From Lingula anatina (taxonomy: Eukaryota > Animalia > Brachiopoda): a DNA stretch of 64,000 nucleotides. Position numbers and translations under genes: made by a program. The stretch's first letter is position 1. Every line of letters starts with the position of its first letter. Of this stretch, positions 13,674 to 53,789 are shown in pieces. A model generated the notes under the pieces. The model made no database searches, was not told where the DNA came from, and saw only the letters and a list, made by a program, of their open reading frames with translations. The stretch spans positions 68,054,788 to 68,118,787 of the forward strand of contig CM120640.1 in assembly GCA_051362555.1 (NCBI GenBank). Reading direction: 5' to 3'.

Positions 13674-16600
13674 TCACACCAGCACAGGATGGCCTTGAAC
13701 ATCTTCACAATCCTTGCCCTTGTCGTACTCCTCAATCTCCCACTGCATATTCTGCATTATAAACTTTACGATCAGCTGGTAGACTGTGTGTTTTGCTTTG
13801 ATTTGAACTGACATGGCAATGAAGAAGGAAACGAAAAATAAAACCCCACAAATCAGGGTAACTATCTCCTCTGTTGTCAAGTCAACTTTGTTGCGAGGGA
13901 ATTTGCTGATCTGGCCCTTATCTGACAGAAAACACATAACAGTAATGACTGCACAGGACAGCATGACAATGACATTGATGAGAAAGACGCTGTGGAGGAT
14001 TTTGTCTCGTCCATTTACCCTCGGGAGTCTGAAGTGGTTACACTGGAAGAAAGACAAGTTCATATTCAGATCATCTGAAAATAATAATATTGAAATAACT
14101 ATGATCAATCTATTTGATTAAATTTGACATTAACATACTCCCTGGTATTAACTGTCACAACTTTTTATCAAAACATTTAGCAAAAAATGTTTTTCAACAA
14201 TCAAGAAAAATCTAAGTGTGCAAAAAGCACCATTATCAAATATTTTTTTACTATTTTTTTCCATTACTGTGAATTCAGTACACATATATAACAAATTCTT
14301 AACAACAAGCATCATATATAAAAATGCATATCATGCCATCTTCTCAAGCATGAACTTCAAATGGTTACAAATATATTTAAGTGGGCTAAAAATAGGAAGA
14401 CTGATTTTTCTTCAAGGAATATCATGCATACTGAGATCCACCCTTGCTGATTCATTAAATTCCCCCTAAGTCCCGCAGACCTGTCAAAAGTGAAACTTAA
14501 ACCCTATTAGTAAATAAATTGTGTTTAAACTGACAGAGTTGTCCTAAAGTGAAAATAAAATTCAGTGCACAAATAAACTTTGGCACCAAATTCAAGGATA
14601 ACCTGTAACCTGTAATCTAACCCACATACAGAATTTTCTACATGCAGAACTTTTTTCTACACTGTACATGCTTCTTGTCATGTTGATAGTTCATTTGAGG
14701 TACACACAGACTGTGTATATACGCCTATAGTAGTAAACTACTCCACTCATAACTGACTGTTCTGTTAAATATAGAATACTACACTAGATACCAAACACCA
14801 ATTTAGCACTGGAGTTGTATCCTGTAGTTTGGTGAACAAAACACTCCTTAAGGAAGTTCAATAATTTGGGCACAGTCAATATTACAAGTTAAATTGACAT
14901 ACATAGACATATAACTCTAATTAAAATATATATATATGCTTAACTTGTACCCTCAGTTTACCCTTCATAATACTTACTTTGAACTTCTTGTGCCGATGAA
15001 ACTGGTAATGACACAGCTCACACTTGGGTGGCTTCCTAGTCTTGCGTGAGCAAACTTCCAACCATCTCTGAAATATATATATATATATTTTCTGCAATTA
15101 ATTTTTTCTTACAAAAATTTGTGTAAATTACATCTGAATAAGTCCCAATTGTAAATTTTCAGAAAGTACAGGTTTATTATCTATCCAAAATAAAGGTGTC
15201 TTGATCTTCAGTCAATGGGATAGTTTTTTTTTTTTTTAATTTGTAAATTTGTAATGTACCAGCCATAGCAGCAAAGTACTTTTCAGTGTTACAGTAATTG
15301 ACGCTTCACTCCTTACATTTTCACGGAGAACACAACTACTAATTTAACATTTGCGAAGGTTAACTTCTTTTAATGAAACAGCAAAATGAATGCTTGTATA
15401 TGTTATCTTGGGAGTTGTATGCCTTTGATGAGAAGAGCCAAGCAACAGAAATATATTGATAAGCTGAAACATGAACGTGTTATATATCAGTCATATATAC
15501 CAACATACTTGGTATACAGCCAAGATATGCAGTAGTCTATTGACTCAACTTAAAACAGGAGTGGATTTGAACCCATGAGGGTACACAACCCAAAATTAAG
15601 GTAAATATCAAGCCCTCAGCTGCAGAGCCACAGGGCAGCTGACTTCACATGCTAATCAATACTGGTTTGCTAGCTGCAACATGATGCTGCTTCACAATGC
15701 AAACTGTGACTGTGTGCACCTATACTATAATTATCATACTTAGACACAAAACTATCAATTGCTTTTCACCTTAAAAAAATCAATAATTGTTATTTCCCAT
15801 AGTATGGCCCATTTCCATGAAACAATCCCCACATTTTAAGACAAATTTTCCCATAATGATTTACTCTGCTAAAAACATCATAGTTAAGATGTATAGTTAT
15901 GATATTCACTATTCGCAAGTTTACCATTGGTGTATTCAGGAGGAAAATTATAATCCTATTAATTTTAATAGAAATTTTGGGATAAATGCATCTTTCCTTC
16001 AGTGTTTGACTTGTTAACTCAATATTGGCCTTGGCATTTGGCTTGAAATAACCCTGTGCATAGGGGGCTATATTTTGCCAAAGTTACATATAGATATGTA
16101 CCAGTCCATTTTCAATGTCAATAATGTACCTAACCACCCCTTACCAGAAATAAGGATAGTCCCAGAGCACATATTTCTTCTTTTTTTTTTTGGCCTTGAA
16201 TTCTTCATATAAAAACAGTCCTCCAAGACCTTTCCAAAATATATATCTAAAGCCAAGTCACAGCTGTGTGCAATGCTAAACAAACTTACACTTTCATTTC
16301 AAAAAACTTTTACTGAGTCTTACATAACGTGTTATGAATCAGAAAATGAAACTAAATAAATAAATGAATCATTGAAATGAGGTCACTTGCAATAACTCGA
16401 TCATTGTCTATTTGTCTCAAAATTTTCATTTGGCTGGAAGCAAACTTAATTGTAGCACATGGGTGACATCTACTCACCTTTAAACATGTGACATGTATAA
16501 ACTGAAGGGTTCCTGAGCACCTGCACGGTGAGATCAGTGCATCCTGGGCTGTGTCTGGCATATGGCATATCCGACAGATTGGGTTCAAAGAGTTGGCCGA

Positions 16601-16756
16601 ACTAGCCTCAGAGTAAGGTGCATCTGGCAAAGGCAAAAGGTGTTTCTTTGGTGATTCCTCCGACTGGGATGAAAAACTCTGCCCCTCCATAGGATTGATA
16701 TGTATTCCAACGAGAGGCAAGAAAGGCGTAGGTCCCTCTTCTGGTGGATCCCCCAT
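13674..16756 (-). CDS. MARCH-family membrane-associated RING-CH E3 ubiquitin ligase (3 coding exons, about 245 aa)
   Basis: Exons 16756-16478, 15067-14978 and 14042-13674 join in frame. The C4HC3 RING-CH reads CRICH...[23 protein letters not shown]...CELC and is followed by two hydrophobic helices and a WEIEEYDK tail. The acceptor at 16796 implies upstream 5' UTR exons. The paralogue cannot be assigned. Confidence 0.92.
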
Positions 16757-16860
16757 TCCTCTTTGCTGTACAATTTCTATGAACAGATCCTTTTTCCTAA
16801 AAGAAAACAATGGAACCTGTTAGCTGTCTGCCTGCACCTTGCTGTGTCTGATTAACACCT

Positions 16861-24670: not shown

Positions 24671-25022
24671 GATGTATTTTTCAGTGTTTACTCCATAAGG
24701 GTTAAACCATATTTTTGTTTTACTTTATTTTGCGAATGCAAATATAAGCTAGTTGGCTTTGTTTGGTGAACAGACAGGTTGATTTCAAGTCACCATAATT
24801 GTTCTTAAATAGTTTCTGTAGTATAGTTTCTGTGCGTAGTAGCTGTCCAACTACATTAGCCAAATTTGCCTTTTTTTTCTGAAATTTTTCAGAATCATGT
24901 AATGTTATTTTGCTTTAATAATACTGTCATATTAGGAGTCATTTTTTCTCAAAGCTATGTCCAAATCCTACACAAGTCCATATGTTTTTTTTAATTTTTT
25001 TTTTTATTTTTGCAGGTACAGG

Positions 25023-27382
25023 ATGCTTCCAATCCAGACCAAGTCCTCACATTTTGAATCAATCCTAGCAGAATTGAATAAGCAGCGCCTGTCCAAAGTC
25101 CACTGTGATGTGTCTCTGGTTAGTGATCTAGGTGTGACATTCCCAGCTCATCGCTGTGTCTTAGCAGCCAGTTGTGGATATTTCCGTGATCTACTAAACC
25201 AGCAGAGAGCAGGGTCAATCTTAGTCCTCAATGACTATAGCACAGAAGCATTGCAGCTCTTCATTGAGGTCATATACACTGGCAGGTTTCAGCTGCCCAA
25301 AAACATAGACAATGAGGAGGATGTAAAAAAGCTGAGACATTTAGCTACTCTTTTGGATTTACAGACTGCTGTTCAGCTTTGTGATGAATACCTCCGTGGA
25401 GTTCAATTTTTCAAACCAAAAAGTCGACGCAAAACTAACAAACAAAAAAGTCAACGTAAATTAAAGAAACCCTCTTCTAATCAATTGACAAATGAGTCTG
25501 CAGAGCCTGAAAAAGAAGAAAAGGAAATTAAAACTGATACAATTGCTACAAATGTACCAACTGATGATAATGATGATGATGATGGGGATGAATTACAAAC
25601 TGATGATGAGGGGGAAGAATCTCCAGTTGATGTTGGAATGATTGAAGATGATAGTGTTGAATACATACCAACTGGGTCTGCAGCAAAGCAGTGTTTTGAT
25701 GATGAAACGAACACAAAGGGTATAAGAAAATCACTACGCATTGTAAAACGAAAAGTGAAAAAATACCCTGAAGAGGAACAAATAGCGAAACCAAGAAGAA
25801 AAATTAAAAAGAGGAAAGTGCAAGATGATAGTGATTCTGATCTAGATGACAGTATTGTTGTAGAGAGTGGTGCAGATTTGGCTCCTTCTCAGCCTGTTGA
25901 TCCTGTGACAGAGGCTCTGAATGTGGCTTTTGGTATAACATCTGACTTAGGAAAAGAAACCAACCCAACACCAGATCCAGTGGAGGTTGAACAAACTTTT
26001 GACAAGATTTTGAAAATGTTGGCTGTTCATAGACCGCAACAAAAAATAGAGAAAAGAGGAAGAAAGCCCAAAATTAAGGTAGAGGAAAAGGAAAGCAAGG
26101 TAGCAATGGATGGGGAACTTTTCAGAGAAAATGATCAGTCAGTTCTTGAAAAGTTTGCTGAAATTACAACAAAGGTTGCAGAGCAGGAAGGACAGACACT
26201 TTTGATAAATGGGACCGTTTCTACTGAAAGTTCAGATTTTGATACCAAGGTCAGTAAATCCTTCAAGTCAATCCAAGAGCAAATTAAAAAGAGAAAACTA
26301 ACTGAAAATAGTGAAGTGTCAGTCAACCTTGGCTTAAAGAAGAAGCCAGCCAGTGCACAAGAAGAAGAAGAATGGCGAAATTGTTTATACTGCAAACAGT
26401 TTAGGGGTAAAAGAAAGGGAAGATTTGAGTTCCATGCAAGATATTGCAACAGCCAGTACCGATGTCAACTTTGCTACAAACCTTTTCTCAATGAGTTTGA
26501 TATGAAGAGGCATCATTGTGCAAAAGAAAAGGTATATTATGCTTTTTGTACTTTATTATGTATGTTGGTGCTGTCCATTGAGTTACTGAGAAAAAGGTGC
26601 ACAACAAAATTATGATACCAATAGTAAAAACATTCTTTGTCAATGGACTGATTGATATGCTATTTAAAAAGTGTTTGGACGGTTCCATCTATCGTACATG
26701 TTATTTGTTTTGCTTTATTTTTTAGAAAAGTGTCATTTGTGAACAGTGTGGGAAGACCTTGACCAACTGCTATGCTTTAGCTCTCCATATGCAAGTACAT
26801 TCAGGAGTGAAGAAACATGCTTGTCAGCACTGTGGAAAGCTTTTCCTACGAGCATGCCAGTTGAAGGCTCATGTAGTCCATGTTCACACAACAGAACGTC
26901 CCCATAAGTGTGTCCACTGTGGCAAGGCATTTGGATTGAAATATGAATTAAACAGACACTTACAGAACCACAGCACAGCATACAACTTCATTTGCAACCA
27001 GTGTGGTGCTGGGTTCCATGAGAATTTTAAACTTAACCAACATGTCAAGATGGCTCACAAGCCTATGAATGCTGGCATACCACAGGTACTACATCAGACT
27101 AGCAGTGCCTCAAGCCAGATAACATTTTTGGCCCCAAGTATGACATCCCAGGCTGAAAACTCTACTTTCACGTATCCTACTAATAGCTTGCCTGTCAACA
27201 ATCTTCCAAACTCCGTTCCAGGAGAGTCTCTGATTTATGCCATGGTCCCTGCATCTTCACTGGCACTGACTGATGACCTACAGGAGAATGATGTCACTTT
27301 CCAAGTAATTCAAGCTATCCAGGGGTCATACAGCAATGACCAACCAAACCAGGACCAGGAAACTAGACTGACCACTCTGTAA
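25023..27382 (+). CDS. BTB/POZ and C2H2 zinc-finger transcription factor (ZBTB-like, about 721 aa)
   Basis: Coding exons 25023-26531 and 26726-27382 (phase-0 GT-AG intron). BTB signature LNKQR...HCDVSLV...FPAHRCVLAASCGYF...YTG, an acidic/basic linker with a possible KRGRKPK AT-hook, and four canonical C2H2 fingers in the last exon plus two degenerate ones before the intron. A non-coding first exon probably ends at 24110 (GTGAGT). Confidence 0.93.
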
Positions 27383-28473: not shown

Positions 28474-31400
28474 TCAGCTTGCTTGATCATCATCCTCAAA
28501 ATCCTGTGATAGTAAAAAGTTGGCTGCCAAGTCTTCATTTTTCTCACAGGCAAAATAGGCTTGAATGCACATACCCTCTGGGAAACCCAATGCTTTGAGC
28601 TGAGGGAAGAGAAAGAGAAAAAAGAAGCTATACATCTTCTTTGAAGCAAATCTGTATGCTCATCCATATTATATAATGTTTCTATGGCAATACAAGAACC
28701 TATATGCATTATACTTCAGTATTTTGAAAATCACCTTGACGCAAAGCAGACATATCTCACCCTTTCAATAGCTTCTTTTTCCTGTGGAGTAACTTGCACC
28801 ACACCTGGAGCAGGTCCTTGCCCTTGCCCCCCGGCTCCCTGAACCCCTGGCATCACCGGACTCCCACCTGCCTCCACTGGCTCATTCAACATCTGAACAA
28901 ACTGTGCTTGATTTTGGCTGATTACCTACAAAGACCAAGAGGTGTAAATAAGAAATCATCCAATTAAAAAAAAACATTTAAAGCAACAGATTTTTTTTAT
29001 CTTTAGATTAATTCTTAATTTCTCCAAAAAATTGTTTCTCAATAACTATTTTCAGGGTGAACTTGTGCAAATGTTACCTGGAGCAGCTGGGGGTTTGTCC
29101 TACCAATCTGTTCAAGCAACACATGCAGAAGCTGAGGGTTTTGCTGAACAAGGTTTCTCATTTGTGTAAACTGAGGTTGATTTCTCAAAAAGGAAAGGTC
29201 TTCAGCACCTAAAATAATTACATATTTAGTTAAAACTTAAAACATACCACAGCTATTTCACAAAAGCACCCTTAAGCCCGAAAAAGTCAAAACAAAGTGC
29301 GTTAACATTTCTCATCAAAGAACATGGATCGAGTGGAGAGCACAAAAACCAGTGATGCAACAAAATGTCTATTCCTCTTCATTTACAAAAACTAATACTC
29401 ACTTCCAGTGCCAGTTGGTGCTCCTGTGCCAGTTGTTGGTGCGCCAGTAGTTGGTGTACCAGTGGTTGGTGTACCAGTGGCTGCTGGAACTCCACCAGCA
29501 GGTGTCCCTGTCTCAGAGGCAGGTGTGCCAGCTGCTGGAGTACCAACAGGCTGTGCAGGTGCTTGTACTGGCTGTTGTGCTGGTTGAGCTTGAGTTTCTT
29601 GGCTATGTATTTGAGGAATACCCTGAGCAGGACACATGATATAAACATAATTAATAACCTGTTATTTCTTCATTGATTTTTTCTAATTTTATCATAATTT
29701 TTCAGAAAAAAAATGCTTTGGTACAATGGGGCAGTCCTTGACAAGAATGTCAATGTACTACTTTTTAAAAATTAAAAGGTTCCAATCCAAAAGCATATCT
29801 GATAAATAGTAAAATCCTTATCTACTTTCCATAAAAGCTTTGGGTTAAAAATACCTAAAGTGTAAATATATTACTTAACACAAAACTGTTACAGGAGGTT
29901 CTGCTAGTACTTACAGTTAAAAGATATTCCACTGCTCTATCTGGATTATTAAAGCTTGCCCTTAAGGCTCTTACTACTTGATCTCTCTCAAAGCCCATAT
30001 TCATAATTTCCAGTATCATCTGTTCATAAGCCTCCCCTGTTACTAGTGTACTCTCAGCAGAGACAATTGATGAAGAGGATGGCACAGAAGAAGCAGGTGT
30101 AAAGGAACTCTCTGAGCTAGCTGATGCTGAAACATCACTGAAATTACAAAAAGTAGAACCCTTTTTGTGTATGTGTGTGTGGTTAATACACAACCGTTAT
30201 ATAGGTAAACCAGCACTTTTCAAATCTCAGTGCACACATACACAACTATTACAATTACTTAAATCATTCTTAAACATCAACAGATCTGTTTCCAGTAATT
30301 TGAATAAATACAAACACTTGATAACCAATATGTTATTTGTCAGTTGGATCAGACAGTTTAGGCTGATATTGTTATTGAAAAACATAACTACCTCGAGGGC
30401 GGTGTTTCTTCTTGTATTGGTTTTACTTCTTCCTTCTTTTCTTCTTTTTTCTCTGGTGTGGCGGCTGCTGGTGTACTGGCAGGTGCTGGGGCTGGGGCAG
30501 CACTGGCTGTCTGGGCACTCTCTGCTGGTTTGGCAGGCTGTGCTTTAGGCTGAAATAGCAATTTTTAAGTATGTGTTCATCTCTTAAAGTAACAGCAACT
30601 ATTAAACTGTATTGCTTGTTGTGTAAAATTGTGCTTTCAATAGAATGAAAAGATTTGCAGCCCGTACAGGAACACTCTTACAAAATATATAAATGTGGGG
30701 GAACCAATGTAAGACCTAGATGAGAAGAGCTACAGAAATATATACCCAGACAAGGGTTGGGCCAGATATTAGCTGTTCACTGGGAAAAAGGAAAGAAACA
30801 TCCTTGACCTATACTTCTGCAGCTGAGGAAACTTTACATCAAATTTTAAATTCAGGAGTAAATGCCTGTATTCTTTAAAAATAGAGATGGACTGGGACTC
30901 ACAGAATGTTACAAAGTTCAATTCAGACCTAATAAGGAAACTGAATAATCACAAAGATGTTGAATAGGTATTTTCACTGGAAGGTTTGTGAGAAAACATA
31001 AGAAGGCGGAAAAATACAATTAGACATAAATGACAGCTTCTGTGAAAAACTGAGAAAGTGTAGGACCTAAATGTTTATTGATGTGAAAAGTCTTTAAAGA
31101 CAGTTAATCAATTTTTCACAATGAACAAAGTAGAGAAACAAAATATCAAGCCCAGGAAATGTTAACAAGCCAATATCTTCTGGCATTTGGTATATCCCAT
31201 AGATCTTTAAACAAATTATAATAAAGAAGATCACTTCACTTACTTTGGTAACCATTACCACCACAAAATTCTTTTCTTCAATTTTATAATCCCCAACGGG
31301 CTTTTCATCATCTAGAATTTTACCTGAAAAAAAAAAGAAAAGAAATTAAACTTAATAATCATAGTGCAGTCCCAAGGTTTCTCATTTTGGAGCAATATAA

Positions 31401-42631: not shown

Positions 42632-45600
42632 CTAATCTCTCAGTCCCAGCTCTGAGACTTTCCTCTGAGCCCACTGCATTACAACCATACTGCTGCCATT
42701 AGCAATGAAGCTGCGAATGGTGCCTGGACCCAGACCTCTGTACAGGGCAAAAAACCCACCTCTTTCCTTGATTACCAACTGCATCCTCTTCAGAACTGGC
42801 ATTTTCCTAAGAAAGGACAAATTTACAATCTTTTTTAAAAATGTTTTTACTTTAAAACTGAAATATATATATAATATTTGTACTTCACATGTCAGTTTCA
42901 CACAATAATATTTAAAACATTTTGAAACTGTAATACAGAGATCAAATTTTCACACATGTACTACTGTGATTTTGAAAGAGAAGTGAAACAACTTACTCTC
43001 CATATCCACCTTGAACTTGAGACTTCATAAACTCTAAAGGCCAGACCAACCACCATGCTAAAGTGGCTGCAATGCCTGATGTCAAAAATGGTCCCAACAG
43101 AGGGCGCTGGAAGTGCTCAGCATGGTTACGCCTTATGTAATCCACCATTATAAAATATGATGTCATCAGACCTAGTGTTCTGCTTAAACTTATGCCAAAA
43201 CCCTGAAGAATAATAGTTACATTCTGCATATACATTTAAATAATTAGCATGCTGAGACATATCTTGACATTACATTCAGAATGGCACAGTAGTTACAAAC
43301 AATCCCGCACTTTTAAACTTGACAGTATAATAATCTTTCATGAATAAATATTTTAAATGTCTGAGAGCTTTACTTGTAATTCAAATATTGGTAATTCTTT
43401 TACATCTATAAAAGCTCAATAAATATTACTTTAAAAAGGGAAAATTTTAAATTCATACAAACATTGTAAACTTCTCTTATTGTCCATGTTGACTGGATTT
43501 GTCTACGAATCTGAAATCAAAATAGTCAAATTAGGCATAAAATGTTTCTTATCTGATGGATAGGACTTTTAAGATGAGTAATGAGACAGAAAGTACTACA
43601 TTTAACAAAATATACAGAAACTTTTTCTTAATAATTTCAATATTTTCAAACCTTGGCATACTCTAGTGGTGTTTCAATAACAGCCCTTGCAGTAGATGCA
43701 ACCAATCCACCAATGATAACTCGGCTGTTGAATGGAAAAAACATATTATTTGCAAATAAATATTCCATTCCTTAAAAACACTTTCTCCTCTTAGTGTTTT
43801 TACTGTTATAAATATAATATCTTTACAAATATTTTCAGATGTCTACATGTACCTTTAAAATGTTTTTCAATGATTTTCAACTCAATATCAATCTCAGTGC
43901 TTTGTTCAACTTTTCATTTCTATCCACTTATATTGGAAACCAATTCCCTTGACATGTCTATATTTGGTGCTCTAATTTAAATTTTCTGTGAAAACTTACA
44001 TTTGTAGACCTGCAGTTGCTGGTATTTCATATTTTCCAAAATTACTGTCCATCTTCGTATATCTAAAATATCACAATACTAAAATTCTATCTGTTACAGT
44101 CAGTGAGATGTAGTCAAGGAAATACTGTGTAAATTAAATTATCAAAACAGCTTTTGACTAAACAGTAAATACTGATGACAAACAGCAGTAAGCAGCAGTA
44201 CTACTAGACTACTAGTAAAAGAACTAGATAATGTCATATTCAGCTAAACATCATTGACAAACAACTGGATAATTACATAAGAGAGCACCTGCTGATGTAC
44301 TTACACTGCCTCAAACACTGCAAACTGTGTAGATCTGTATATCCCTGAGCCACAGAGGGGTGGAATACAGCCTCTGTAAAAACAGTGAAGACACAGGCCA
44401 TTAGATTAGTGTTGAAATAAGTACAAATATATTCCACATAAATCCAGATTACTGTAAAAACTGAATATTTAACAAAGTAGCAAAGGTGTGAAATGGACAG
44501 ACATATAAAGGAAAAAAAAACTGACAGCAGCACCCTAAAATGATGAACGTCCAATTTTATTGATATAAGAGTATAAAATGGGTTTTTAAAATCTTTATTG
44601 ATGCAACAGGACATAGTGGCAAAATCACAACTGTCAGTAGAGAGCATACATTTAAACTGTTGGGTGTCTTCCTTACATAATGACCTTAAATAGTTCAAAC
44701 TTGTTGAACATGTTTAAAAAACACATACACATGACAGCATTATCTATGCAAACTTAAACATGGCAATCTGTGTTCATGCAACTTGTTGCACAGTGTCAAA
44801 GTTTACAACAGAAATTTTTAACAACATTTCAGAATTCCATTTTCTTTAACTACTTTTCAAATATACCTGTGCTTACTTGATTTTATCATATGTACGGTCG
44901 TATAAAAGAACAAATTTTAGTGTATAACTTCAACTTTTTGGGTGCTATGATTCCCCCAAATCACACCTAAAAAGGCCTATTTTGCAAAAATAAAAAATAA
45001 AAATAATAAAATAATAATAATAAGAACAATCCAACAAAACTAGTTTTCAAACTGTTTTTCGGACATGACAACCATTCCTGTAAGTTTGAGAATAATCAGA
45101 AAGCAACGCAGTTTTCTTTTTATTGTGTTTATAAGTAAAAATTCCAGGAAAGTGCCTTATGAAGGTGGGGCAACATCTGACACAGGCAATGTAGTTATAC
45201 AAGATGCTTTCTAAATCAAAATAAAATTAATTTTTAAAAAAGAAACAGTCAAGAATCAATTAAACAGTTTGATCTAAGTTTCTGTGCAGCTTACATGGAA
45301 GACTTAAATTAAAAATAAAGGTTTGAAATACATAACCATTTGCATGCAATACTGTACCTATATAACCCTATTACTCCTTGAGACTTGATTGTTTTTGCTA
45401 ATGTTTTCAGCATTCCACCTTTTTCAAAGCCTACTTGTGCCTGCATCTTGGTCTTGATGGTGTCAAAGGGATGCCCCACTGCAACACTGGTGGTGCCATA
45501 CAGTACCCCCACTGAAATTGATGCACAGACAAACTTGTATATTTTAATGTAAATAAAAATTTCACCTTACAAACAATTGTAAAAAATATTGACCAAGAAA

Positions 45601-46099
45601 ATGTAATAACGCCTGAAAAATAGTATTATTTGGATTCACACAGTTCAAACTTGATATTAAAGAAAAAAGCACTGGGCCTGTAAAGAACTTTTGTGAATTT
45701 TATGCATGATCTAAAAATTATTACATCTGTCCATGTTGTGATACATGTACAGGATAAATAGAGGTTTGTTTGCACACTTGTCCTAGGATTAAAGATCGAA
45801 CCTACAGTACTAGTACAAATGTAATTGCGATATCACAGATTAAAATATTCGAGAATTTATTATTATTATTATAACACTAAGAGTATGTTGCCATTAATAC
45901 CTCCAAGGTAAATAAAATAACGATATTAATGTCGATAGTAACAGATATTTACCTTAACCATTATTTATATTATACTAAAATAGATAAAAGTTATGATAAG
46001 AATATACAGTACATGTATACTTTGGCGTTGTTGTAACGTACCTCCAAGGCCTATAAGGCCCTCTTTGATCCAATGAGCACGCTCCTCGTTATGTGTCAT
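42632..46099 (-). CDS. Mitochondrial carrier (SLC25 family; 8 exons, about 281 aa)
   Basis: Exons 46099-46042, 45511-45358, 44373-44305, 44062-44000, 43724-43652, 43510-43463, 43202-42997 and 42806-42632 join in frame (846 nt). Three Px[DE]xx[KR] signatures (PFDTIKTKMQ, PLEYAKIRRQ, PLEFMKSQVQ) and GLYRG/EVYNG/ALYRG motifs. Confidence 0.93.
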
Positions 46100-46210
46100 G
46101 ATGCCAAATAGTTTGAAAAAAGTATCAATAACACACAGCCTTCATATTTGTCTTATTTTGATAAAACAACAGTACTAAAATTGCCTTCCTAAGTGTACAG
46201 TATACTAACT

Positions 46211-46247
46211 AGGTCACGCTGTGTTTACAGGTGGTGACCTTGACCTA
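46211..46247. promoter_or_regulatory. Nuclear-receptor (ERR-type) and FOXO-type motifs upstream of the SLC25 gene
   Basis: AGGTCA at 46211, TGTTTAC at 46222-46228, and TGACCTTGA (reverse complement TCAAGGTCA, an ERRE) at 46235-46243 overlapping a second half-site. Confidence 0.4.
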
Positions 46248-46450
46248 GATGGTGAGGTCTCGCTTTTCATAAGTCTTTAAGATAATAAGATTTGCATGGC
46301 ATTATTCAATCGTGAGTGGGTTTTATAATTAGAATAGAAAGGGTCTCCATTTGAAATTATATATTCTTACGATGATAGCATTAATGCATTACCATTAAGC
46401 CAACACGGAGCCAACACCCACACAACAAAGACAAAGTGCCCGTATTTGGA

Positions 46451-46473
46451 GGGGAATCCCCATGGAAATTTTC
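46451..46473. promoter_or_regulatory. Tandem NF-kB-like sites upstream of the CARD-TRAF gene
   Basis: GGGGAATCCCC (46451-46461, near-palindromic p50-type) and GGAAATTTTC (46464-46473), about 280 bp before a donor AGA|GTATGT at about 46752 that probably ends a non-coding first exon. Confidence 0.5.
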
Positions 46474-47586
46474 ATATCCAAACTTACACCCCCAGGAAAG
46501 GGAGAGATAAACACTTTAAAGGCTGACTTTTGGTATAGTTTTATACATGTGAGTTAGTTTATTGAACTTAAAAAAGTTTCATATGAATACTTAGTAAAAT
46601 TTGCAATCAACTTGTTTGATTACCCACTGCAGTGGGGAGATTGGAAAGGGAATAACCAGTCAACATCAAGGGAGCGTTCGATGGGATAACGGCACACCGC
46701 ACTACAATAGGCCGGGCAGAGAACAGCAGCTAATGTCGTTCGGCAAGCAGAGTATGTTTTCTTTTAATTTATACATTCTATCCAGTTTAGTTGACTCATT
46801 TGGAGTCTGTTTTATCTTCACTGATACTCTGAAACTAATAGTGATAGGCTGCACTTGCACTGTTTTATGTAAAAAAATACCATTTAACCCATTTAACCCA
46901 CGCCATCTTAAAAATTGTTTTGATAAAAAATGTCGGATTTCAATAATCAGTATGAGCTAAATTATCGCTTGTCGCTAATATGTTGAAAGGACCGTGGGTG
47001 GGTGTTTTATTGTCAGTAAACTCCATATTTCTTATATGGATCATCTTCAGTGCAAACTATACTTAAATGCTTTTGAAATATGGTATAACATGATGTAAAC
47101 TAAAAATCTTGTCATTCACATTTAAAGCCAAATGAAGATGTGAAGTGTGGCAAAAACCGTATAGATCTACGTTTTATGGGCGTTAATTCAAAGTTTGCGA
47201 CCTGTAAGTTTGATCGTAAAAAATTACATAAGGTCCAGGTACCAGTAATTGAGAATCAGAAACCTAACAGAAAAGCCATACGTTCTTTATTGCAGATTTA
47301 AGGTATACTGTACTGGATATTTAGTAATTTTTACTCACAAATCATTACTTGTCTCTTGACCTGCACACTAATCAAATTGTATCATGTTTCCTGAACATTT
47401 TAGAAAAAAAAAGACACCAGGTACATTTATTTGAGGGTTATTTATTATCATTTTAAATGTGTTAATTGGGAAAGATATGACATTTTGCAAGAAACTGACA
47501 TGACATTGTCCTATCAGAATATATTCAAATGTATAAAATATACATGTACCTTTCAGTTCTCTTTTTTATTTATATTTACATAGGAT

Positions 47587-50500
47587 ATGGATGAAAGAAA
47601 GAATATGTACAAAAAAATTCTGAAAAAGAATCAGGTATATTTGGTGGAAGAATTGAAAAGTGAACATCTCATAAATCATTTACTTGAAGAGGGAATTTTA
47701 ACATCAAGAGACAATGAAGAGTTCAAGGCTTCACAAACAAGACGAGAACGTTCAGAATGGTTGATTAACCATCTGACTACACATGCTCCACCACGTTTTT
47801 ATGATGTTCTCAGAAGAGCACTGATAAAAGAGGGACAAGAACATGTAGCAGATAAACTTGATGCAACTCTGACAGGTATACACATACATGTACTCCTTGC
47901 TGATCATATAATAGTGGAATAAGTATTTTCTATGGGTCCTCCTTCTGGGACCTTTGATTATATTAATCTACAGAATCTATTAAAATGCCTTGTCTTAGTC
48001 ATGAATGCATTAAAACATTACAATGTTTTTGATTGATTTCAACAAAAATGGCTTTGATTCACCATTATATCCACTGTCATAAGTAATGATAAGGACTGTG
48101 ATGATAATAACAATGAAAGAAATGATCAAATTACTATGGCCTGCTGTAATTAATTTTATCTGAAATGTACTCAAAAACTTGTATGTGCTTGTTTAATTTT
48201 GGACAAATTTCTTATTTTAAAAAATTTTTCCATTTAGAGTTGATGGAAGAAGATAAAACAGCTAGACCATCTAAGGGACATAAAAGTAGGTTTTCAATCT
48301 TTTCCTTAGTGATGAATTTATCAAGAGTTTTTAATAGAGGCTGGTTACCCTGGCTGGATTAATTTTTTTTTTTTTACATATCATGTGATGCTTGCTATCT
48401 TAAGCAGCTTAGATGTCTGTCATGCCTACTGAAGCTGCTAGGGAGTAATTAATTATCGTTTTTTGTATCTGAAAATTATATTTTGTGTCTGAAACATATC
48501 TTTAACTATAACAGGAAGGAGGTCACAGGGCAGTGGGTCATGTCCATCGCCAAAGTACAAGTCATATTACAGAAACCTTAATCGCAGCTCTCCAACAAGC
48601 AGTGTCTCATCATCTAGTCCCAGGGGAAGTCCCACATTAAAACAGCTTCAGGGTGTAGTATGTATTCTTCTTAACCATCTGATATATTAAACTTTTACCA
48701 CAGTGACTGATATTTTTACGTTTTGCATAATTTGTTTTTCAAAGAAAAATAAGTGCATGATTTAGTTCTCAAAATGTGTATGTTTATATTTTGCGTCATC
48801 TTATAAGTCCGTTATTATGGTATGACCTTAAAGCAAAAGCATGATATTAGGATTACAAACAACTGTGTAGATTTTCTATCCTTAAAGGTATCCTATAATT
48901 TGGCATTTTCTTGCCAGATTGAATTTTTCTTAGAAAAAAGCAATTTGCTCTTACTCATCTATCATTGATCTTAAATTTGTGAACTGGATTGAGATGTAGG
49001 ATAAGAAAATGTTTGGGAATTTGTATAACATTGAGGATATATAGTGGTTTTTATATTAGGTCTTCAGGCCCATGGAAATTTATTTATGTTACATATAATT
49101 TGGGACATCATGATTACAGGAGAGCGTTCTTTGTAAATACCATGACAAAGGTTGTTGTCAGTCAGTTCCACCAGAAGAGTTAGAAACTCTCTACGCCCAC
49201 AGTTGTGCATACAGGCCACAGCAATGCCCTCACTGCGGAAATGAAGTGCCACTCATTGCTTTTGGACAGGTATTTTTGATTCTGTTTTTGAACTGAAATG
49301 TATGTAATAAAATGTTGTGTACTATTTTTATGTACAGCATAACCACCATTATTCTGACTGCATGCATTGTTCAATTTAGTACCCTTACAATTATATACAA
49401 ATTGTTTGTAGCAGTTAGTAGATTAATTCTTAACAATTTTTGTAATGATTCAATCTTTTCTTACTTAAAGCACATTATCTAACAGATGTTTACATCATTC
49501 TCAAATGAGGATAAATTGCAGTAATCTGAAAATAACATTTTTCTTTGTACAATTTCCCTCTTTAAGCATGTTACCACCTGTAAAGTGAGGAAAACTGAAT
49601 GTCCAGTGTGTTCAGAAACAGTGGCACAAGGACAGGTATACTGTTGTCATGATCACTTGTAAATATGTAATTAATTAATTTTTTTGTATACTTGAATATA
49701 TATGCATATATTTTAAAATAGGAGATATCGGAGTTGTTTTTCTTCATATATATACTAACTTTGATATAAATACACTTTTCAAAAAGAGGAGCATCCTGAT
49801 GTTCTGAGTTGCCAGTTTTTCAGCTGTCCATTACTTAGTTGTTTTCTGGTCACAATTTATTTTATTAAGGAGGCAATAATGGAGTATGTAATATAAGTTT
49901 TTAAGATCAGTATGTCAGATCATCAGATTTTTTTGATGATAAAGCCAGCAAAACATATTTAATTTAAATCTCTAAAATTTACTTTCAAATTGAATTGTGT
50001 AATAATAGTGAAAAATTTGTTTAAGAAATTATGGTCTCCCCATCAAAAGTGAACTTAAGTAAATTTGCTTTGTCAAAGTCAGTAGTTTAATTTCATTTTA
50101 TAACATTAATAGTGATTTATGTGTATTTAGAAAGAATTTTCATTGTTTAAACAATAGCTGGAATTGTTTTGTTTTGAATGTATTTATTTCTGAAATACTA
50201 TTACAGTTGGATGAACACATTGAGAAACATTATGATACTCAAGACAGCAAGTGTCACTTTGTCTTGGTTGGATGTACTTATGCAGTAGGTATAATTTGAT
50301 ATTCAAACTTAAAAGCCAAGATTTAGTAGTAGTGTTTAAATATATATATTGCTCTCACCTTTGTCACACAAGCAGAAGCTTGAGCTGTTTACATTTAGCT
50401 TACTGTCATTTCTTTTACTGCCAGTTTCACCATTTTTCTTCAAACTCACAGGGATTACTCATTGTTCTAATAGAAACTGGGCATGAACCGATAATTCTTT

Positions 50501-52366
50501 TATATTTTAGAATTAGTTTTGTTTACACAGTACCTTTAATTGATTTTGTAAAGGCCGCAATTGTTGTTAAAATTTTGATTTCTTTAACGTGGCAAGTTCC
50601 ATTTAATGATTCACACTAAAGTGATCTTCTACATTTAAATATGCAATTTTTCAAGGGAAAATCAGCTGATCTTGGGGCTCATAGGAAAGAAGCTGTTTGC
50701 TCCCATTTGGAATTGCACAGTAAATGTTGCGAGAAAAAACACAAGGAAACCAAGGTAAAGACATATCTATGTATATCATATATATATCAGATAAATCATA
50801 TTACATAAAATCACTGCCTTCCGGAATTATTGTTGCAGGCATAATTTTAGCACAATTTAAATTGGGAATCAGACATTTTTGCTTGTTGATTTTCTACCTG
50901 AAGTGCCTTCTGATTATCTGTCATAAGTCCACCTTGTCATTTGTTCCCTTTTAATCATGTAATCCAAAATCTTGTCTGTTGTTGGTGATACAACTTATTA
51001 TTTCCATTGTAGACATCCCTATTTTCAATAAGAACTGACCTTGACTCTGTCAAAAGTACTGTTGACTCTCTACAGAAACAGAATTCTGTCACAAAGGGAA
51101 TACTTGATGAAATGAGAAACACAAGTTATTCAGTTAATAACAACACAAGTCCAGCAGTTTCATCTGGTTAGTATAACTGTTAATAAATTTTGACTCCCTT
51201 TTAAAGGAAATTAGAATTGTGTTGGAGAAAAAAACATGAAACTTATGGTTCCTTTAGATACAGTTTTGACTTCATGTATGTATATTCTCTTGTTATTTTT
51301 AGTTATTTTAACTGGCAAGTTAGTGATTTCCAAATATGGGTAAGATATTAGAATGTTATAAAGTCATACTTACCTGTTCTTTTTTGAATAGCATTTCATC
51401 CATTCCCTACCCCTGAAAGTCAGCATGAAATAGAAACCACCGGGACTCCAGCAGCTTCAAAGAAACCTGTGGCTGGAAAGAAAACTCAACTTTTTAAACC
51501 AGCCCTGAAGAATGTGCTGACTCTGTCCAATATGACTGGTAAATATTATATGTTTCTATGAATTGGTTTGTGTGAGATGCAACATGAAAGAGATACAACA
51601 TGTAGGCGGAAAAAGTCGAGTCATAATTTTTTAAACATGAAATTTGTAATTGTAGAAATATGAACTCAACAGTGATATTAGAAGAGAAATGTAAGACGTT
51701 ATATGGCAAACACATAGTGCATGCAATTTTTTTCATCATTTTGAAAGCGATTTAGAAAATTTTAGATACTTACATACTTAATACTCTTTATCAGTGCCCA
51801 TTATATTTCTATTTATTGCAGGCAATGTGGTAGTTGGAAAAAACATTACATTTGGTGAAAAGGACAAAGTAATGCAAGATGAGATATTGATTGATAACAC
51901 TGGCGAGGAGGAATGTTTTCAATGGGATGTGTACCCAGTGACAAATTATCTCGGTGCAGTTCGTAAAAATCTTGTGGAGTCAATTATTAGTCCAGTTTTC
52001 TATACCAATAACAAATCTGGGTACAAAATGCAGCTGCAGATGTACTTGAATGGGGATGGTGAGGAAAGCAGGGGGTTTGTGTCTCTCTTCTTTGTTCTGC
52101 TGCCAGTAATTAATGATGGTAAGCTTGACTGGCCTTTCAAGCAGAATGTGACCATTAAGATTTTGGACCAGAGTGACCAGAAACGCCATATTGTATACGA
52201 ACTGCAATATGACCCTGATACCGAGATTGAAAACCCAATCCCCACTGAGGATTCATTTGTAGCTTATGGTGTGCCCAAGTTTGTTAGATATGAGTTTCTT
52301 GAAAAGAAACAATATTTATATATTTCTCATGATAGAATAAGAGTAGAAGTTCAAGTATCTGACTAG
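47587..52366 (+). CDS. CARD + TRAF-type zinc fingers + coiled coil + RHIM-like motif + MATH/TRAF-C domain protein (10 coding exons, about 573 aa, no RING)
   Basis: Exons 47587-47875, 48238-48285, 48515-48657, 49120-49269, 49567-49635, 50207-50284, 50656-50754, 51013-51166, 51392-51538 and 51822-52366 join in one frame (1722 nt, all GT-AG). CARD: ILKKNQVYLVEEL...HLLEEGILT...TRRERSEWLINHL...RALIKEGQEHVADKL. Fingers: CKYHDKGC...CAYRPQQCPHC...HVTTC...CPVC...EH...CHFVLVGC...H...SHL. TRAF-C: SPVFYT...GYKMQLQMYLNGDG...VSLFF...LDWPFKQNVTIKILDQ...YGVPKF. Confidence 0.88.
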
Positions 52367-53789
52367 TTTAACAACAAGATGCATGTTTGGCAAGTCCATT
52401 GCCATGTTTGTGTTGTAGGAAGATACTGTATATGATCATTCATATTTGTCTTATTTTATTCATTTTATTAATTTTTTTCATTTATTTACTGTTGTAGCTC
52501 ATATTATTTTTTATCATTTATTTTGAAATTTTTAGGTGGTGGAAGTTCTAGTCTTTAACTCTATAGATAATAAGAAATTTTGTTCTTTATAGCCTGGTTT
52601 TGGGCTGATTTCACACCTGTGATTAAGTCTTAATTCTGCCTTTGATCTTGTTTTGAATTAAGGTGAGTTATTTGTATGGCAACCCATATGGAGAAACCAG
52701 GTTTTGATTTTGATGTAAACTTGTCCTCATGAATAAACAAACTTAAACCCACTTGTGAAGTCAACCCTGAACAGTTCAGTGAAAAATTCTTTTGTGTATA
52801 TTTAAGAACTACATATTGCATGGATGAACTATTTTTGAAGTTTAACCATTTATTCCAAAGTGTTTGTTACAGATATACAAACTTTGTAGATGTGTATTTA
52901 AAGTGAATGTATTAACTTATGTTCACAGAGGAGACAAGGTGTCGTTCATGCTGAACATTGTCTGAAGGTTTAACCATCTTCAGTTGATAATGTGTTCTAG
53001 TTCTAGCAAATTCTACACTTTGTAATCATAAGGTGCAAGTATTATCAGCGCTTGATTATTGATGTGCAGTCTTTAGTGGCTAATACGAGACTGGCATTTA
53101 GATAGATGTTCAGATATTATAGTTGCACTTCCATGGTCAAACTTAACTGAAAAGTAGGGAATAAAAGTATCGAATTGCCAATCTTTACCTGACTAAATTG
53201 ATAGAGATTGATAGAAAGATTTCATTATTGGCAGTTGGGAAGTGCAGTGCTAAAGGACTTGTTCAAAAGTATTAAGATAAATGAATATAATTGATATAGG
53301 CTGACAAATGAAGAATTTCATGGACATTTTTTAAATAAATTGGTGGCGAACAGCTTGACGCATTTTGCACATGCCGTGCCTTATTAAGACACGGTCCAAT
53401 CTTCTAGGGACCAATAAACATAGAAGCAATTTATTTTATGATATTTTCTTGGAGATTAATAAGTATGGCAGTACAAACACCATTTTTACTGTTATATTTG
53501 ATTTAGGCACTACTCATTTGATAGCATGGCTGTTTTATTTTCACTTTTGGCAGATTTCAATTTTGAGGTAACATATTGATAAAGTATTTTAGGAATATTA
53601 ACCTTTTGTTATTTTGTCAGATTTGACACATTGTTGTATGACAGTCAGTAATCTGTATTATAATTTATGCTATATTGTAGTTTAAATCATATTCATATGT
53701 ATTTCCCATTTTAATGTATATTGCTTTAGGAGCTTTCTTGACATTGGCAAATTGCATGCATGCTTAAGCTGTGTATATCTTCAGTATAA

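Follow-up and report, generated by a model that had tools for sequence, protein, structure and literature searches.

A RING-less TRAF gene with an N-terminal CARD

Within a 64-kb stretch of the genome of the brachiopod Lingula anatina (64,000 nucleotides of contig CM120640.1, assembly GCA_051362555.1, positions 68,054,788 to 68,118,787; hereafter the window, in whose own numbering coordinates are given), we found a gene that fuses a CARD to a TRAF scaffold, a real variant within the TRAF family in which the CARD has diverged far more than the rest of the protein. The CARD-TRAF gene is a single spliced gene on the plus strand (47587-52366), whose ten coding exons (47587-47875, 48238-48285, 48515-48657, 49120-49269, 49567-49635, 50207-50284, 50656-50754, 51013-51166, 51392-51538 and 51822-52366) join into 1722 nt encoding 573 amino acids (aa) and a stop codon. 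The predicted protein comprises, in order, a CARD, a Ser-rich linker, four TRAF zinc fingers, a coiled coil, a spacer and a MATH domain, and is without a RING. Pfam models matched the CARD in exon 1 (E 1.8e-12) and MATH in exon 10 (MATH_2, E 8e-26; TRAF-mep_MATH, E 4.4e-25), with weak zf-TRAF matches on exons 4 and 6. The same domain order is found in the RefSeq counterpart from L. anatina (XP_013389961.1, 574 aa, here P0001), which was automatically named 'TNF receptor-associated factor 3' and in which Pfam detected no RING family up to E 1. The original prediction, made from the DNA letters, that ten exons encode one CARD-to-MATH frame with the CARD where the RING would normally sit is therefore borne out.

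All introns of the gene are of the GT..AG type, and all nine coding junctions were present in RNA reads from eight of the nine listed runs (X1-X5 and X7-X9, which carry the same species label and consist of short reads of 150 nt). Because the reads are this short, no single read links the CARD to the MATH domain, and the support is a chain of junctions rather than one molecule. Four junctions were covered in each of X1, X4, X7 and X9, namely 47875/48238 (10, 2, 12 and 8 reads, respectively), 48285/48515 (6, 2, 13 and 3), 49635/50207 (2, 3, 6 and 8) and 50284/50656 (6, 4, 6 and 9). Junction 48657/49120 had three reads in X1 and a small-offset form in the more divergent runs X7 (8 reads) and X9 (9 reads), while junction 50754/51013 had four reads in X1. 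Reads across the remaining junctions came from X2, X3, X5 and X8: 1, 1, 0 and 12 for 49269/49567, 6, 10, 0 and 4 for 51166/51392, and 5, 2 and 4 in X2, X3 and X5 for 51538/51822, plus 15 X8 reads with one mismatched letter. An alternative donor for exon 6 (50288) and an alternative acceptor for exon 8 (51076) were rejected, given that they introduce stop codons and that reads use 50284 and 51013. Read depth over the MATH exon was zero along most of its length in X1 and X4 and along part of it in X3, and reads were present in X2, X5 and X7-X9; such dips are by themselves no finding.

A non-coding exon lies upstream (46300-46751, plus strand; start not mapped, donor inferred), as indicated by sense-strand depth in X1 and X4 and by a loose read end in X7 that matches this exon joined to 47584. 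With the inferred donor at 46751, an in-frame stop precedes the CARD start codon. Downstream, the 3' untranslated region (UTR) spans 52367-53400 on the plus strand, where read depth reaches the end of the stretch compared (end not mapped). The original prediction had taken phase-1 boundaries as a sign of exon shuffling. This argument holds for the 3' boundary of the CARD exon, which is in phase 1, and fails for its 5' side: the preceding intron lies inside the 5' UTR and, with the inferred donor, is in phase 0 relative to the CARD frame, so the exon is not a symmetric 1-1 module.

Fold and nearest matches of the CARD

Coding exon 1 (47587-47875, plus strand) encodes aa 1-96. As had been proposed, its product models as a six-helix death fold (helices at 3-15, 27-35, 41-48, 53-66, 69-82 and 86-105), the single-sequence fold being poor outside the CARD. 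The Pfam score was 47.5 bits against a cut-off of 23.9, and the best structural match was a chain of a CARD-CARD disk (5wvc_D; Z 11.6, root-mean-square deviation (rmsd) 2.7, 100 residues aligned), followed by 4rhw_E (Z 10.6), Apaf-1 (10.5) and CED-3 (10.3). In structure, the model is thus nearest to the caspase-9/Apaf-1/CED-3 group, with the CARDs of RIG-I and MAVS (Z 9.3-9.6) and CARD9 (Z 8.6-8.8) lower. The sequence profile was nearest to BCL10 (E 5.5e-6) and did not match CARD9/11 at E 0.1. Structure and sequence appear to point to different relatives, and this ranking of likeness would name no partner.

Linker, zinc fingers, predicted trimer coil and spacer

Exons 2 and 3 (48238-48657, plus strand), joined by junction reads, encode a basic, Ser-rich linker (aa 97-160) with a predicted local distance difference test score (pLDDT) below 50, as expected of a disordered segment. 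Exons 4-7 (49120-50754, plus strand) encode four TRAF-type zinc fingers (aa 165-276) and lead into the coil, on the evidence of Cys/His spacing, zf-TRAF matches, pLDDT and junction reads. These fingers had been described as partly degenerate, which overstated the case: four ligand sets are present (finger 3 being CCHH), and the region was modelled at pLDDT 90-98. The zf-TRAF match on P0001 (E 1.3e-5, 26.2 bits) fell just below the 27-bit cut-off. One finger His is replaced in the window by Leu184, whereas P0001 and all 44 reads across position 49190 have the His; the Leu is therefore a private allele or an assembly error.

The coiled coil (aa ~273-327; 50695-51117, plus strand, at the end of exon 7 and in exon 8) shows a heptad register and corresponds to a helix at 274-337 in the model. 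When three copies of P0001 aa 270-574 were predicted together, the trimer score was 0.56, compared with 0.00 for the best of three controls; runs agreed in at least 40% of contacts, and partner pLDDT was at least 54. The confident interface covered aa 274-328 with every confident contact within the coil, giving a predicted parallel trimer; residues without a confident contact count as uncertain and not as shown apart. In calibration on microbial proteins, 21 of 30 solved pairs scored at this level, as did 0 of 23 single chains; for eukaryotes the counts were 17 of 29 pairs (7 of 16 from animals) and 0 of 30 single chains. The coil is thus predicted to trimerise on its own, ~95 residues upstream of MATH. 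The original prediction spoke of trimerisation induced by a receptor, which does not agree with TRAFs being stable trimers in solution (passages of PMC6125299) or with a predicted interface that the coil alone provides. At the end of the coil, three X2 and seven X3 reads carry an in-frame 45-nt skip with non-splice ends (51082-51128, exon 8), together with two nearby variants. This skip is probably a deletion allele that removes ~15 aa.

Between the coil and MATH lies a spacer of ~95 aa, rich in S/T/P/N by composition (51118-51910, plus strand; end of exon 8, exon 9 and start of exon 10), whereas named relatives pass from heptads directly into MATH. In the 37 residues before MATH, helix formers made up 35% (tied lowest; mean 56% in 85 relatives) and beta/turn formers 54%, the highest of 86 proteins. 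Flexible tethers are predicted on both sides of the coil. The spacer, together with the MATH-less paralog and the hypervariable CARD described below, was not part of the original prediction.

A RHIM-like motif, split by intron 9 (51517-51538 and 51822-51844), was also observed in the spacer, with an Asn-flanked VVVG core; we treat it as a lead only. The RHIM core tetrad is given as (V/I)-Q-(V/I/L/C)-G in passages of PMC9444067, and VVVG does not fit this mammalian tetrad. The motif had no Pfam or PDB match. A looser pattern fitted 1 of 177 proteins, with shuffle counts of 0/20000 and 5/5000, which are inflated because the pattern was drawn up once the motif was already known.

A complete MATH domain with an altered groove

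The MATH domain (aa ~423-573; 51911-52366 with the stop codon, plus strand) forms a complete TRAF-C beta-sandwich, with a Foldseek match to TRAF5 at E ~1e-14 and an rmsd of 1.8 A over 151 columns. Scores were highest for TRAF5 (82 bits), followed by TRAF2 (76), TRAF1 and TRAF3 (72), TRAF4 (65) and TRAF6 (34-36), and identity was at most 35% to any of 102 relatives. Receptor hot spots were mapped through an amphioxus TRAF2-like protein (P0022), including D399 and S467, which we take to be hot-spot positions. In TRAF2 numbering (passages of PMC6125299), three of the 12 mapped positions are kept (Y395, D399 and F410), one is conservatively replaced (L432 by Ile) and eight are changed (R393, F447, S453-S455, F456, S467 and C469). 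Among the changed positions, R393, F447, S453, S455 and F456 are retained in 92-98 of the 102 relatives. The alignment has a gap at the serine loop, yet no serine triad occurs in MATH. Hot spots 1-3, required for Px(Q/E)E motifs in the TRAF1/2/3/5 class (passages of PMC6125299), are accordingly not preserved, and these changes, including the Arg and the serine finger, speak against binding to classical receptor tails as first proposed. Receptors are also bound by TRAF4 and TRAF6, in which the typical hot spots are likewise missing (passages of PMC6125299), and the altered groove therefore fits a new specificity.

Phylogenetic placement was assessed in unrooted MATH trees of 103 rows (quick) and 38 rows (careful), from which multi-MATH proteins, partial domains, cluster members and TRAF6 were left out. 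The domain had the longest branch in the trees (end branch 3.59) and fell in no starred set, and a parent TRAF could not be named. A grouping with a conventional, RING-bearing Lingula TRAF3-like protein (P0025), which exists separately, was not rejected by the approximately unbiased test (p 0.21), with the very long branch to be kept in mind. The RefSeq name 'TRAF3' for P0001 is a best-hit label.

Excess divergence of the CARD between two gene copies

Comparison of the window protein with P0001 yielded 34 differences in 574 columns, and these were concentrated in the CARD: 21 of its 96 positions differed (20 substitutions and one indel, all within aa 6-70), compared with 13 of 477 positions outside it (Fisher p 1e-9). 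From the coil to MATH (aa 278-573), only 2 of 296 positions differed. Nine of the 20 CARD substitutions change charge, and each is reachable by one base change. Heterozygosity in one Lingula animal has been reported as 1.6% (passages of PMC4595640). On the assumption that the window and P0001 represent the same locus in one species, even treating all CARD sites as neutral at 1.6% divergence gives ~3.7 changes (p 2e-9; p 3e-5 at 3%), and aa 278-573, with 2 changes against 11 expected if neutral at 1.6%, is constrained. Sparing of the hydrophobic core among the CARD changes was not significant (p 0.09). At least two CARD haplotypes occur in RNA run X1. At three CARD residues, the divergent runs X7 and X9 agree with P0001 and not with the window. 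Taken at the level of protein sequence, which cannot separate selection from gene conversion, the hypervariability of the CARD points to one or the other of diversifying selection and gene conversion. Fast CARD change may reflect pressure from antagonists or changing partners.

Distribution and prior description

A paralog was detected in L. anatina (XP_013396205.1, 411 aa, 'uncharacterized', here P0031) with a CARD, fingers, a coil and a low-complexity tail, and without MATH. It shares 29% identity with the CARD-TRAF protein over 279 columns; since it has both CARD and fingers at this identity, their junction predates an old duplication. With HMMER, 2731 matches were obtained at E 0.001 among 1.84 billion representatives, and of the best 150, which were examined, only P0001 and P0031 aligned over the CARD. 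Pfam likewise assigned a CARD to these two alone among the matches listed (147 of the best 150, P0002-P0004 being left out). Several other matches, among them P0002-P0014, are proteins without a name that carry as many as 13 MATH domains in tandem. Word-index homologue searches kept 1 of 316, 1 of 7992 and 1 of 655 candidates, in each case the Lingula query or its counterpart (for the CARD exon, P0001 was the sole match among longer proteins), and these blanks are weak because the searches with 316 and 7992 candidates missed the true paralog P0031. No Atlas clusters combining CARD and TRAF families were listed, a metagenome scan gave no match, and no CARD-TRAF was found outside Lingula with these insensitive searches.

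The suggestion that CARD-TRAF is an uncharacterised architecture agrees with the literature searched, which contained no description and did not take in Gerdol et al. 2018 on Lingula immunity. Passages of PMC8195603, PMC8998645, PMC9444067, PMC9835746, PMC4595640 and PMC4262963 contain no description of it, and the main text of PMC2575513 mentions neither 'TRAF' nor 'MATH'. The architecture is already implicit in the public automatic annotation of P0001. According to passages of PMC8998645, Lingula RLRs carry varied N-terminal death-fold domains, and immune genes of lophotrochozoans commonly show grafted domains. The fusion is less surprising because death-fold grafting is documented for these RLRs.

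Proposed mechanism and alternative explanations

We propose, with a probability of about 0.4, that this RING-less TRAF is a pre-formed, non-enzymatic trimer. Built on the observed gene structure, domain order, missing RING, altered groove and CARD divergence, the proposal is that the coil would hold the chains in a constitutive trimer, that MATH heads on the predicted flexible tethers would be drawn together on a clustered partner of non-PxQxT type, and that the raised CARD density would seed a caspase-9/2- or Bcl10-type CARD assembly. The polarity (MATH in, CARD out) would follow that of TRAFs, where the N-terminal end is the effector, and the MATH-less paralog P0031 could be a modulator that works by way of its CARD or coil. 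Such a protein would likely link a clustered partner directly to a cell-death or NF-kB platform. CARD proteins with coiled coils act via Bcl10 and a paracaspase, and annelids and molluscs are reported to have Bcl10 (passages of PMC5978004).

Several points weigh against this proposal. A CARD that fits a conserved caspase should be constrained, yet this one shows 20 substitutions, nearly half of them charge-changing. The MATH domain may bind no receptor, since its groove departs from the TRAF2 type at the Arg, at two Phe and the Cys, and in the serine finger. Three was the sole copy number tried in the trimer prediction, whose score may owe to resemblance to TRAF coils that are already solved; of seven eukaryotic pairs without an older solved relative, only one reached the same level. 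A second stalk adjoining MATH is possible because the alignment-based model drew aa 379-419 as a helix, albeit at a low pLDDT of ~57-68. No statement on a Lingula Bcl10 was found in passages of PMC5978004 or in one supplement, and the CARD and MATH partners named here are candidates only.

The polarity could also be reversed, with the variable CARD serving as input on upstream sensor filaments of NLR, RLR or MAVS type and the constant coil and MATH as output, received by RING-bearing TRAFs or by a host partner that is fixed, much like a MAVS-TRAF shortcut in one chain. We consider this somewhat unlikely: the CARD is indeed the variable end and MATH the constant one, the receptor-tail groove is altered and Lingula RLRs carry varied N-terminal death folds (passages of PMC8998645), but the arrangement runs opposite to the established polarity of TRAFs, and the best CARD matches are caspase-9, Apaf-1, CED-3 and BCL10, with RIG-I and MAVS lower. 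Unlikely, too, is that the protein dampens signalling, either as a TRAF1-like modulator combined with an inhibitor of the CARD-only type or as a bait that draws off pathogen factors antagonising CARD assemblies. RING-less TRAF1 is a negative regulator through TRAF2 (passages of PMC11117997), P0031 retains the CARD, fingers and coil without MATH, and the excess amino-acid change in the CARD would suit a bait, but MATH, fingers and coil are all intact and constrained, beyond the needs of a simple sponge. The pre-formed trimer, the reversed polarity and the decoy share a core claim, a CARD-to-TRAF bridge without a ubiquitin ligase.

It is less probable still that the CARD divergence is non-adaptive, resulting from gene conversion from another CARD exon, from introgression or from comparison of different species or paralogs, and that a lineage-specific shuffle produced a gene whose function is modest. 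The differences end around aa 70, still within exon 1, which is how a conversion tract could look; the comparison of proteins yields no synonymous rate, core sparing was not significant, the MATH branch is very long, and domain grafting is common among lophotrochozoan immune genes (passages of PMC8998645). Against this, all 20 substitutions are single-base changes, as expected of recent change and not of a distant donor, X1 shows more than one haplotype, and both the divergent runs X7-X9 and the old paralog preserve the reading frame and the order of domains. A bolder extension of the trimer proposal, which we regard as speculative and doubtful, would make the gene part of an undescribed brachiopod family of TRAF-derived trimers that turns TRAF-type clustering directly into death-fold polymerisation without ubiquitin. 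The CARD would then be under an arms race or balancing selection, as an integrated bait or a polymorphic surface of self/non-self type, with the RHIM-like amyloid motif possibly a second polymer seed.

Genomic neighbourhood and other features of the locus

The CARD-TRAF gene, single-copy within the window, stands alone among housekeeping genes. These include exons of a RINGv ligase (16352-16819, minus strand; domain match), which we take to be MARCH-type, exons of what is presumably a BTB-C2H2 zinc-finger gene by domain match (24936-27382, plus strand), and exons of a UBA-bearing gene (29855-30196, minus strand; domain match) that resembles RAD23. A mitochondrial carrier (SLC25) gene on the minus strand (42632-46100) lies head-to-head with the CARD-TRAF gene, and the two probably share a short promoter near 46100-46300. 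If the inferred donor of the upstream exon holds, a short upstream open reading frame (46733-46751 joined to 47584-47593) would run out of frame across the CARD start codon. Near 52454, poly(T) terminates three X3 reads that belong to the opposite strand class; they may come from a minus-strand transcript polyadenylated within the CARD-TRAF 3' UTR. Two short intronic repeats (48397-48461 and 50875-50917) attracted many unrelated reads on both strands, and the first of them, which shows hairpin-type joints, resembles a miniature inverted-repeat transposable element.

Significance and comparison with known systems

TRAFs are ubiquitin-based relays, and CARD assemblies form a separate, polymer-based relay. 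A TRAF and a CARD working in one chain would demonstrate that a TRAF scaffold is open to rewiring towards an output without ubiquitin, and CARD-TRAF offers a simple test of whether three tethered CARDs suffice to seed a filament. With its excess change, the CARD is a candidate host-pathogen interface, and brachiopods are a phylum for which hardly any functional immunology exists. The appeal of the gene is limited by a known range of two Lingula genes and by domain grafting being common in marine invertebrate immune genes.

By its MATH domain, fingers and predicted trimer coil, CARD-TRAF is a member of the TRAF family. It shares TRAF zinc fingers, a coiled coil and the TRAF-C fold with TRAF2/3/5 (and TRAF4), but has a CARD in place of the RING, a coil ~95 aa from MATH and mostly changed hot spots. 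Where canonical TRAF2-6 have an N-terminal RING, aa 1-96 are a CARD, with a stop upstream of the start; and where the TRAF mushroom has a TRAF-N coil continuous with TRAF-C, the confident coil ends well before MATH, with a low-confidence helix modelled between them. Like TRAF1, the protein is RING-less, TRAF1 being without E3 activity (passages of PMC11117997); the two differ in that TRAF1 retains the typical hot spots and is without a folded N-terminal domain (passages of PMC6125299 and PMC11117997), whereas CARD-TRAF combines a CARD and four fingers with an altered groove. With the CARD-CC proteins (CARD9/10/11/14, of the CBM complex) it shares an N-terminal CARD oligomerised, here by prediction, by a coiled coil and followed by a regulatory tail (passages of PMC5978004), whereas its coil is short (~55 aa) and TRAF-derived, and a linker and four fingers (~175 aa) separate CARD from coil. 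CARD-TRAF is not a CARD-CC member but, by analogy, probably works like one. RAIDD, ASC and MAVS are two-ended death-fold adaptors, and CARD-TRAF resembles them as a putative non-enzymatic bridge with a CARD at one end, differing in that its other end is a TRAF coil and MATH rather than a death domain, a pyrin domain or a TRAF-binding peptide.

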